Source of the DNA: Candidatus Nomurabacteria bacterium
GTDB lineage: Bacteria; Patescibacteriota; Minisyncoccia; Phycocordibacterales; SBAW01
Length of the DNA: 64,000 nucleotides
Reading direction: 5' to 3'
Assembly: GCA_943348815.1 (NCBI GenBank)
Contig: CALQYT010000003.1
Span: 4,679 to 68,678, forward strand
Shown here: piece after piece, positions 38,759-39,469 of the stretch
How positions within the stretch are numbered: the stretch's first letter is position 1
How the letters are laid out: every line of letters begins with the position of its first letter
The notes under the pieces: generated by a model
Databases searched by the model: none
Told to the model about the DNA's origin: nothing
What the model saw: the letters and a program-made list of their open reading frames with translations, nothing else
Program-made: the position numbers and the translations under genes

Positions 38759-39436
38759 TTGTACGATGCTACTGTGCTGCGTCATCAAGGTTCGACCTTG
38801 ATGTATAATGCGTGGATGGGTGACCGCGTTCCACTTATATCTGAGGAGATATACCACGTTTACAATCGTGGCACAGATAAAAGAAAAATCTTTTCAAACA
38901 ATAAAGACTACGAGCGTTTTCTTGCACTACTATACCTAAGTAACGGTACTTCCGCGGTTCATATAAGCAATCATCAAGGTTCGACCTTGATGGATTTGTT
39001 GGGGTTAGAGAAAGGCAATCGCCTCGTGGATATTGGGGCATATTGTTTAATGCCGAATCACTTTCACCTCCTTCTTCGCCAGCGTAGCGAAAATGGAATT
39101 AGTAAATTTATGCAGAAATTGACGACGGGTTACACCATGTACTTCAACACTCGATACGAACGTAATGGGACACTTTTTCAAGGCAAATTTAAATCCTCGC
39201 ACGTTGCAGAAGACCGCTATCTCAAATATCTAATTTCTTACATTCATCTAAATCCTAAAAATTACAACGTCCATCAATACTCAAGCTACTTGGACTTCAT
39301 GGATCAAAAGCGCCCCGAATGCAAAATTTTAAATAAGGAATGTTTACCTCTTTATTTTACTTCGCCCGGTGATTTTGCTGCGGAATTAAAAGATTGGGCA
39401 TCTTATCGAAACGAGTTTATCAAGGTTCGACCTTGA
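38759..39436 (+). CDS. tnpA: IS200/IS605-family Y1 (HUH) transposase, REP-associated (RAYT-like, COG1943-type)
   Basis: YHVYNRGTDKRKIF, the HUH motif AYCLMPNHFHLLL, and the catalytic-Tyr region YIHLNP. The likely ATG is near 38801, embedded in a palindrome; the track ORF starts at an upstream TTG. Confidence 0.75.
   Translation: MYDATVLRHQGSTLMYNAWMGDRVPLISEEIYHVYNRGTDKRKIFSNNKDYERFLALLYLSNGTSAVHISNHQGSTLMDLLGLEKGNRLVDIGAYCLMPNHFHLLLRQRSENGISKFMQKLTTGYTMYFNTRYERNGTLFQGKFKSSHVAEDRYLKYLISYIHLNPKNYNVHQYSSYLDFMDQKRPECKILNKECLPLYFTSPGDFAAELKDWASYRNEFIKVRP
38783..38803. repeat. REP/subterminal palindrome copy 1 (5' flank, contains the tnpA ATG)
   Basis: CATCAAGGTTCGACCTTGATG. Coordinates are +/-1 nt. 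Confidence 0.5.
38972..38992. repeat. REP palindrome copy 2, in-frame inside tnpA
   Basis: An identical 21-mer encoding HQGSTLM inside the transposase, within a region about 20 aa longer than in typical family members. Confidence 0.5.
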
Positions 39437-39458
39437 TGGGGTGAGGTTCGACCTCGCC
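39419..39458. repeat. REP palindrome copy 3 (3' flank, contains the tnpA stop) plus a degenerate copy
   Basis: ATCAAGGTTCGACCTTGATGG followed by GAGGTTCGACCTC. Confidence 0.5.
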
Positions 39459-39469
39459 CGAAAGGAGAA

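Follow-up and report, generated by a model that had tools for sequence, protein, structure and literature searches.

We describe a nuclease gene and its attendant hairpins in a 64,000-nt stretch of DNA (hereafter the window) from a Candidatus Nomurabacteria bacterium (GCA_943348815.1, contig CALQYT010000003.1, 4,679-68,678 of the forward strand; GTDB lineage Bacteria; Patescibacteriota; Minisyncoccia; Phycocordibacterales; SBAW01). The gene codes for a Y1/HUH nuclease, and one and the same hairpin recurs upstream of it, in frame within it and on its stop codon. We consider it probable that the whole is a REPtron-like unit characteristic of Patescibacteria, in which a domesticated and vertically inherited nuclease resembling the REP-associated tyrosine transposases (RAYTs, where REP stands for repetitive extragenic palindrome; class 2 of TnpA_Y1) is kept together with its own cognate hairpins. 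RAYTs are the textbook example of a domesticated prokaryotic transposase. An initial annotation, made from the letters of the window alone, had recognized a transposase of this kind framed by palindromes. Beyond that annotation, we find that the internal copy is conserved at the nucleotide level in concert with the flanking copies, that the trio of hairpins is present throughout the family, and that the 5' copy lies against the promoter. The unit is made up of the following features:

38783-38803, forward strand: 5' hairpin CATCAAGGT-TCG-ACCTTGATG, an exact match to the 21-mer, folding as single-stranded DNA at -8.2 kcal/mol (z -6.7), directly upstream of the -10-like box.
38804-38809, forward strand: TATAAT, a putative -10 box 6 nt upstream of the ATG at 38816.
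38816-39436, forward strand: Y1/HUH nuclease gene, 206 aa from the ATG at 38816; gene callers start it at the ATG at 38801 (211 aa).
38972-38992, forward strand: internal in-frame hairpin, an exact match to the 21-mer, as is the 5' copy; it encodes HQGSTLM, residues 53-59 when numbering starts at the ATG at 38816.
39418-39438, forward strand: 3' hairpin (stem 39419-39437, ATCAAGGT-TCG-ACCTTGAT), with the stop codon TGA (39434-39436) within its 3' arm.
39439-39459, forward strand: hairpin of a second type, GGGTGAGGT-TCG-ACCTCGCCC, with one G-T pair, identified by its fold as single-stranded DNA.

The initial annotation had placed a perfect palindrome near 38783, 38972 and 39419, the last containing the stop codon and being followed by a degenerate copy. 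All of these were located: the 21-mer is exact at the first two sites and matches 20 of its 21 positions at the third (TATC for CATC), the stop codon does lie in the 3' arm of that copy, and the degenerate copy is the hairpin of the second type, whose GAGGT-type stem is the cognate type of other family members such as those at loci L007 and L009. What did not stand is the description of the element as a perfect palindrome, since it has 9-bp arms around an asymmetric 3-nt TCG loop and differs from its own reverse complement at 3 positions. Shuffled versions of the window contained no match to the 21-mer. The core GGTTCGACC occurs five times in the window, always on the forward strand, against an expectation of 0.33; these five cores are the three copies at the gene, the second-type hairpin next to them and a solo hairpin at 17938-17958. 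Folded as single-stranded DNA, each hairpin of the window reaches about -8 kcal/mol (z -6 to -7).

The family to which the nuclease belongs is very large. More than 7,800 homologs were retrieved, and all those with a source name came from Patescibacteria. We examined two subfamilies of it: subfamily 1, sampled as 81 loci (the window and 80 loci from GTDB genomes), and subfamily 2 (approximately 38% identical, first encountered in L073), sampled as 80 loci from metagenomes (L091-L170). A set of syntenic orthologs, comprising the window and its 3 closest homologs on long contigs, represents four species. Across the 81 loci of subfamily 1 the hairpins occupy three fixed places: one some 45 nt ahead of the gene start, one inside the gene at around nt 155, and one at the stop codon. 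Among the long hairpins with 3-nt loops, the core GGT-NNN-ACC is dominant. Counting the hairpins at two sites of a locus as shared when they have the inner 6 nt of the stem in common, we found shared 5' and 3' hairpins in 63 of the 81 loci, with the internal copy sharing them too in 43. Throughout the family the 3' hairpin overlaps or abuts the stop codon, the C-termini reading ...QGSTLM, ...IKVEP or ...EVQPR. The stems themselves are of 34 types between loci (e.g. TACAAGGT, GTCAAGGT, TCCAAGGT, CCGAGGT and GTGAAGGT). Of the comparisons made inside a locus, 85% had the shorter stem wholly shared; between loci, stem identity was 77% at 80-89% protein identity, 47% at 70-79%, 20% at 60-69% and 9% at 50-59%. 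Because the stems are shared within a locus while their identity between loci decays along with that of the protein, the three copies evolve in concert and co-diverge with the encoded nuclease.

The loops provide a further clue to the nature of the element. Whichever subfamily is considered, the loops of any two copies at a locus are either identical or exact reverse complements, in a ratio of about 50:50 and with almost nothing else; hence, a given copy is one common element placed in either of two orientations. At the internal site, where the loop has to code, neither TGA nor TAA is ever found; apart from this, both orientations occur there. The stems are perfect and of variable length (6-21 bp), and they end abruptly without imperfect extensions, which left no mismatches (G-T versus A-C) by which an RNA function could be told from a DNA function. 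Hairpin doublets in inverted orientation lie beside many genes of the family. Subfamily 2 displays the same trio with unrelated hairpins (e.g. ATGTAGGACGT-NNN, ATGTCGGGACGT-ACG and TATGGAC-ATCGTAA), with matching 5' and 3' hairpins in 45 of its 80 loci and a matching internal copy in 46; the perfect internal stems within the coding sequence have a median length of 13 bp. The internal copy lies in the same linker of the protein in both subfamilies, 19 codons before the HUH motif in subfamily 2 and 25 codons before it in subfamily 1, and in subfamily 2 it uses two reading frames. The peptide at this site (e.g. MSGRTTSRH) follows the hairpin, not the reverse.

The genomic context points to vertical inheritance. 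The window gene and its three closest homologs on long contigs (68-73% identical) all occupy the same slot, between rpiB and gap in the block aldolase-pfkB-tkt-rpe-rpiB-gap. This identity lies within the range of the neighbouring products (RpiB 54-72%, Rpe 56-63%, Tkt 77-82%, GAPDH 63-88%). The proportion of nonsynonymous differences between the Y1 orthologs (pN) is 0.17-0.24 and that of synonymous differences (pS) 0.77-0.91, the synonymous sites being saturated. The gene tables of the syntenic loci contain no tnpB-like neighbour. Genomes of the family often harbour several Y1 paralogs, about 38% identical to one another and each with its own hairpin type. Given the same slot in four species, a degree of conservation like that of housekeeping neighbours and the divergence of the paralogs, we judge from the alignments and gene order that the window gene is not a hopping insertion sequence (IS) and has been inherited vertically, as is the pattern of RAYTs rather than of IS200.

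In six more distant loci (L002, L016, L019, L047, L049 and L057) the Y1 gene adjoins gap on its other side, at about 100 nt; the association with the rpiB-gap block would seem to be older, or more recurrent, than the exact slot. Additional paralogs with distinct hairpins include those at 246-953 (reverse strand) of L086 (AGTAAGT-CTG), 3996-4682 of L061 (GATAGAGGT-TAA) and 19196-19867 of L073 (ATGTCGGGACGT-ACG). A large number of the homologous loci are found close to the end of a contig, at a distance of a few hundred bases, or on short contigs of 1-3 kb, which could reflect assembly breaks at repeated or polymorphic sequence.

The initial annotation had suspected that the internal copy was re-inserted by the transposase into its own gene, in which case it should be absent from orthologs. 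Comparison with these does not support such a re-insertion as a recent event: the codon position of the copy is unchanged among the syntenic orthologs and across 43 of the 81 family loci, and in the one ortholog where it is no longer intact (L089) it has decayed with its length retained (QRGLTLT). As homologs without a detectable internal hairpin in general keep an unchanged linker length, the copy decays in place and is not simply missing. Its codons were compared with those in the rest of the same genes, anchored on the protein alignment and independently of hairpin detection. At this site Gly is encoded by GGT in 44 of 61 cases (72%, versus 28% elsewhere) and Thr by ACC in 45 of 53 (85%, versus 25%), with CAA used for Gln in 39 of 39 cases and TTG for Leu in 36 of 53. 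The run CAA GGT TCG ACC TTG ATG is identical in three of the four syntenic orthologs, while the flanking codons vary synonymously. Taken together, the internal copy is ancestral, actively maintained and under constraint at the nucleotide level.

The protein bears the HUH motif (HFH, 39059-39067) and the catalytic-tyrosine motif (YIHLNP, 39239-39256) that the initial annotation had read in it, and matches the Pfam domain Y1_Tnp (PF01797; E 4e-10, 40 bits against a cut-off of 23), with no other Pfam domain, including any helix-turn-helix (HTH), at E up to 0.1. Searches of the PDB by sequence gave no match with the single sequence and only marginal ones with a profile (4er8, E 0.4). Nevertheless, an AlphaFold2 model built from 25 homologs (pLDDT, the predicted local distance difference test, 83) has as its best fold match 4er8, the E. 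coli TnpA_REP with bound REP hairpin, followed by the TnpA proteins of IS608, ISDra2 and IS200; nearly all of the top 30 fold matches in the PDB are to one of these four, with probabilities of 0.95-1.0. The 4er8 structure was reportedly described by Ton-Hoang and Messing in 2012. In the model, the internal hairpin codes for part of an ordered linker, some 30 residues long, that connects a helix (34-46) with a strand (76-83). This linker makes the core about 25-30 aa longer than in TnpA_REP or IS200 TnpA, and it is present in all members of the protein's own family; thus, the observation that the segment is some 20 aa longer than typical holds against those distant relatives and not within the family. 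The key motifs NHFH, FQ (in LFQG) and YIHLNP, the last being of the class-2 type Y–––NP, are those listed for TnpA_Y1 subclass 2.1 (Table 1, PMC6006769). The Y–––NP motif, the fold match to 4er8, the fixed syntenic slot and the purifying selection together support the protein as a RAYT-like rather than IS200-like class-2 Y1/HUH nuclease, and with the cognate flanking hairpins they bear out the RAYT-type assignment of the initial annotation.

The 5' hairpin is intimately linked to the start of the gene. The ATG that terminates this palindrome (38801) had been proposed as the start codon, and it is also the public call. The homologs, however, begin at an 'MG' aligned with the ATG at 38816, and the TATAAT at 38804-38809 lies before the latter; we therefore favour ATG 38816 as the probable start, which would place the public call of 211 aa five codons too early. 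A -10 box downstream of the 5' hairpin, with at least 5 of 6 matches to TATAAT and an end 5-10 nt short of the ATG, is found in 53 of 63 subfamily-1 loci (shuffle mean 7.6, maximum 14) and in 29 of 45 subfamily-2 loci (shuffle mean 3.4). In the spacer between rpiB and the Y1 gene of the four syntenic orthologs, conservation is limited to the hairpin, the ATG and a portion of the -10 box. The distance from the -10 box to the ATG is too short for a Shine-Dalgarno sequence and suggests a leaderless gene; the Y1 genes of L001-L170 likewise appear to be leaderless, with a TATAAT-like box that ends 6-7 nt before the ATG. Because it lies upstream of the conserved -10 box, the 5' hairpin is probably not transcribed, and protein binding at this place would interfere with the promoter. 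The TTG of its right arm was considered as a -35 element and rejected, its spacing to the -10 box being 0-12 nt and not 17.

Based on the above, we propose, from the analogy of TnpA_REP and IS608 TnpA, that the protein recognizes its hairpin in the form of folded single-stranded DNA. Of the three copies, the first abuts the -10 box of a promoter that is probably leaderless, the second lies in frame in a tolerant linker joining helix A of the catalytic core to strand 2, and the third covers the stop codon; all of them are kept as one element in either orientation. Their likeness might be kept by selection, as substrates of a co-diverging protein, and by copying between the sites, either through cleavage and rejoining by the enzyme or through palindrome-driven template switching or conversion. 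The 5' copy would most likely allow the protein to repress its own promoter, the internal copy might serve as an auxiliary cis site, and occasional copies would be placed elsewhere, including in frame in other genes. A bolder form of this proposal, which we offer tentatively and would not expect to hold in full, is that the Y1 enzyme actively writes and refreshes its cognate palindrome at set sites, by cleavage and rejoining or by hairpin-primed copying that also flips the loops, in much the way that the HUH protein Rep flips the terminal hairpins of adeno-associated virus. The trio would then be a self-contained module for regulation and recombination, with an operator at the promoter, another in the coding sequence and a 3' site, and the same activity would install palindromes in frame in housekeeping genes such as ligA and gatB.

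Several observations weigh against the account of a domesticated nuclease with its own hairpins. The match of the protein to the NCBIfam model NF047646 (REP_Tyr_transpos; 43.5 bits, E 2.8e-11) falls below the cut-off of 80, and the protein is best described as a relative, not an equivalog, of this REP-associated tyrosine transposase. The flanks of the window hairpins (GCGT-CATC..., CAAT-CATC... and GTTT-ATC...) lack the GT[AG]G foot of canonical REPs. Cognate solo hairpins are sparse: the 849 kb of subfamily-1 flanks yielded 15, or about one in every 57 kb. Moreover, the 5' loop is biased in orientation in subfamily 1 (36:7) and unbiased in subfamily 2, and the palindromic extensions past the shared core differ from site to site (e.g. 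17 bp in L074). About one lineage in three, L089 included, has a decayed internal copy; the copy is dispensable and possibly a tolerated passenger. Finally, selection and gene conversion cannot be separated on these data.

These last points lend themselves to a reading in which the internal hairpin is functionless: an ancient, in-frame REP-like insertion in a tolerant surface linker, which owes its likeness to short-tract gene conversion or template switching, with only the flanking hairpins mattering to the enzyme. Its loss by in-place decay with retention of the gene fits this well, as do the occurrence of the same hairpins in frame in LigA and GatB and the in-frame REP insertions in tnpA_REP genes of subclass 2.4, which have been reported as tolerated and peripheral (PMC6006769). 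Repeated palindromes can, moreover, synapse through base pairing alone; in the predicted RNA fold of 38816-39470, the minimum-energy structure pairs the internal with the 3' copy across about 450 nt instead of forming two local hairpins. Yet in both subfamilies, whose hairpins are unrelated, this one linker houses an internal copy, with offsets (25 versus 19 codons) and frames that differ between them, which suggests that the copy was repeatedly acquired or retained. Furthermore, the internal stems are often longer than the flanking ones, being perfect palindromes past the shared core, and the hairpin is unchanged in three of four orthologs despite saturated synonymous sites. A mere passenger is, in our estimation, a serious but minority explanation. 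Under a different reading the unit is an active IS of the IS200/IS605 type, its 5' and 3' hairpins being the left and right ends and its movement of the single-strand peel-and-paste kind. Its compactness (about 680 bp) with subterminal hairpins at the ends, as in IS200, its Y1 fold, the several paralogs per genome, the many loci near contig ends and the position of the gene on the other side of gap in 6 loci would all be in keeping with mobility. We nonetheless deem this very improbable: the slot is the same in four species and the divergence equals that of housekeeping neighbours, the paralogs within a genome have diverged and carry hairpin types of their own instead of being identical copies, the tyrosine motif is Y–––NP (class 2) and not the Y–––Q of TnpA_IS200 (PMC6006769), and we found neither tnpB in the gene tables nor any empty site.

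It could also be argued that the hairpins have nothing to do with the Y1 protein, and are instead RNA structures (stabilizers at the 5' and 3' ends of the mRNA with an internal attenuator or terminator) or double-stranded palindromic operators for an unrelated dimeric regulator. The internal and 3' copies are transcribed, a U-rich stretch follows the internal hairpin, which was flagged as terminator-like, and a 9-3-9 palindrome resembles an operator. Against an RNA role stand the location of the 5' copy upstream of the conserved -10 box, the random orientation of the loop, which alters it in RNA, the lack of a T-run at the 3' hairpins and the absence of any Rfam match for the hairpins at E up to 1; an intrinsic terminator was rejected for these 3' hairpins, the internal one alone having been flagged. 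Perfect stems of 6-21 bp are likewise unlike operator half-sites. Each paralog has a hairpin type of its own, and the partner must therefore be locus-specific, which points to the encoded protein; hence, we think it very unlikely that the hairpins serve some other partner, and we return to the domesticated nuclease with cognate hairpins as the preferred explanation.

Among described systems, this unit is most reminiscent of the E. coli TnpA_REP/REPtron (PMC8266576): the Y1/HUH fold has its best structural match there (4er8), and in both a low-copy, vertically inherited gene is flanked by cognate hairpins whose type is paralog-specific and co-diverges with the protein, and which also form inverted doublets. 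Co-evolution of RAYTs with their REPs and the vertical inheritance of the former are established (PMC5581495, PMC6006769). The differences are nevertheless considerable. The sequence identity between the two proteins is 11%, in addition to the low NCBIfam score. The window hairpin has no GT[AG]G guide at its foot, and in subfamily 2 GTAG or GTGG lies inside the paired stem and not at the foot. The patescibacterial hairpins are perfect stems of 8-20 bp with 3-nt loops, and whereas E. coli REPs number in the hundreds per genome, the density in the patescibacterial flanks is the low one given above. Nor does the E. coli system have the in-frame internal copy, the promoter-fused hairpin or the hairpin on the stop codon. 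IS200, IS608 and ISDra2 TnpA share with the window gene the Y1 fold, subterminal hairpins at both ends of a unit of about 0.7 kb and a single-strand DNA logic, but they are Y–––Q and multi-copy, in contrast to the Y–––NP motif and fixed chromosomal position of the window gene, whose end hairpins are the same element in either orientation and are joined by an internal copy.

Two further subclasses of TnpA_Y1 invite comparison. In subclass 2.4 (Bertels group 4, of Cyanobacteria and Bacteroidetes), REPs occur in frame within tnpA_REP (PMC6006769). As in the window family, the cognate REPs lie inside their own nuclease gene, in a peripheral region and with the frame intact, and the subfamily-2 hairpins with GTAG...CTAC resemble the 'double-foot' REPs of that subclass. 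Many subfamily-2 hairpins, in fact, have GTAG/GTGG...CTAC/CCAC within the paired stem, reminiscent of these. The copy of the window family differs in preceding the HUH motif, in having one fixed codon position per subfamily and in being conserved at the nucleotide level; the subclass 2.4 motifs, moreover, are NH[IFV]H, WQ and YIxNNP, as against NHFH, FQ and YIHLNP. Subclass 2.1 (Bertels group 1, 'TIRYT'; median 238 aa) is reported to have the motifs NH[YF]H, FQ and Y[IV]HLNP, a C-terminal HTH-like domain (Bac_DnaA_C/HTH_23/HTH_28-like), and no REP-like hairpins, with terminal inverted repeats GGGG[AT][CG]A[CG] in their stead (PMC6006769). The window protein matches its key motifs exactly and is of similar length. 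The window family, however, has hairpins as a rule, no HTH detectable by Pfam and the extra core linker of about 25-30 aa; its likeness to subclass 2.1 thus seems to lie in the motifs, and to extend neither to the C-terminal HTH nor to the want of hairpins.

In the literature accessible to us, which leaves most subscription journals outside its coverage, we found no report of Y1/RAYT hairpins in Patescibacteria, no description of hairpins with a subclass-2.1-like family, and none of a fixed three-site layout with a nucleotide-conserved internal site and a copy abutting the promoter. To our knowledge, the role of RAYTs for the cell is not known, and work on them has been confined almost entirely to Proteobacteria and Cyanobacteria. 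The family described here, which is very large and belongs to the small, reduced genomes of Patescibacteria, carries its own putative substrate at the promoter, in frame and on the stop codon, and keeps the three copies alike as the protein diverges. The unit thus offers, in about 700 bp, a testable system for the co-evolution of a Y1 nuclease with its hairpin, for the selection of a site inside a coding sequence apart from the encoded peptide, and for self-regulation. It also bears on annotation: start codons in the family are probably mis-called, and hairpin-encoded peptides such as QGSTL, KVEP, SRFNL and GRTTS turn up in unrelated proteins. Should the palindromes prove to be written by the enzyme, they would constitute a previously undescribed source of short peptide insertions across the proteomes of Patescibacteria.

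Dispersal of the hairpins beyond the nuclease gene is sparse but appears to be real, with probably at least one true insertion. In the window itself there are one or two cognate solos, the first of which had been noted near 17940-17956:

17938-17958, forward strand: solo hairpin AAGCAAGGT-TCG-ACCTTGCTT, in the 17-bp gap between a NUDIX gene (17957-18415, reverse strand) and the next open reading frame (ORF; 17265-17939, reverse strand).
16329-16349, forward strand: related solo hairpin TCGGAAGGT-TAA-ACCTTCCGA, between the stop of the ORF 15212-16327 and a terminator-like hairpin (16349-16380).

The part that the first has in common with the hairpins of the gene is limited to the CAAGGT-TCG-ACCTTG core; the second shares with them the AAGGT-NNN-ACCTT core family but differs in its loop and outer stem. 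The NUDIX gene has its closest homologs at no more than 67% identity, and these are not syntenic. No cognate solo lies in the 20-kb flanks of any of the three syntenic orthologs, and the subfamily-2 flanks contain 5 in 162 kb; 10 of the 15 solos of subfamily 1 lie within stop-to-stop ORFs. L019 is richer, with three inverted doublets in 10 kb. In L075, the LigA gene (10662-12782, reverse strand) carries at 12407-12433 an in-frame 27-nt palindrome identical to the 3' hairpin of the neighbouring Y1 gene; it encodes AMSRFNLDI which, set against PDB 1b04 and 4lh6, amounts to an insertion of 7-10 aa immediately ahead of the KxDG adenylation motif. In L048, the GatB gene (15071-16501, reverse strand) has an in-frame palindrome at 15408-15432 encoding DCQGSTLTI, with no change in length relative to 3al0/3h0l. 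The dispersal of REP-like hairpins envisaged in the initial annotation is thus borne out only in part, by the hairpins elsewhere and by the probable insertion in LigA, their density being far below that of classical REPs. Cognate palindromes also occur in frame in three very long ORFs (L038 11368-11392, L041 13657-13695 and L048 11684-11698).

Certain other features of the hairpins may be recorded here. Some copies are perfect palindromes (14-21 bp) that run well past the core shared by their locus, in places even within the coding sequence (L074 8697-8733, L078 10128-10158, the internal copy of L144 and the 5' hairpins of L006, L002 and L062); such extensions suggest a palindrome-extending process. 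In L089, a 39-nt unit with the 5' hairpin is tandemly duplicated at 9968-10045 (TTACACCGCCACCCAGCGTATCAAGGTTCAACCTTGATA twice). An origin of the three copies in a CRISPR-like or tandem array was rejected, their spacings being 189 and 446 nt and their positions tied to gene features. The resemblance of AGGTTCGA to a tRNA T-arm was similarly dismissed as a coincidence, in view of the TCA, TAA, CCG or CAG loops at other loci. The element beside the solo at 16329-16349 is a 14-bp GC-rich hairpin followed by a T-run (16349-16380), which has the look of an intrinsic terminator after the stop of the ORF 15212-16327. Downstream of the nuclease gene, a further hairpin, GCCCGAAA-N10-TTTCGGGC, at 39456-39481 overlaps two features: the second-type hairpin, at its right arm, and the convergent ORF 39470-39760 (reverse strand), at its stop codon.

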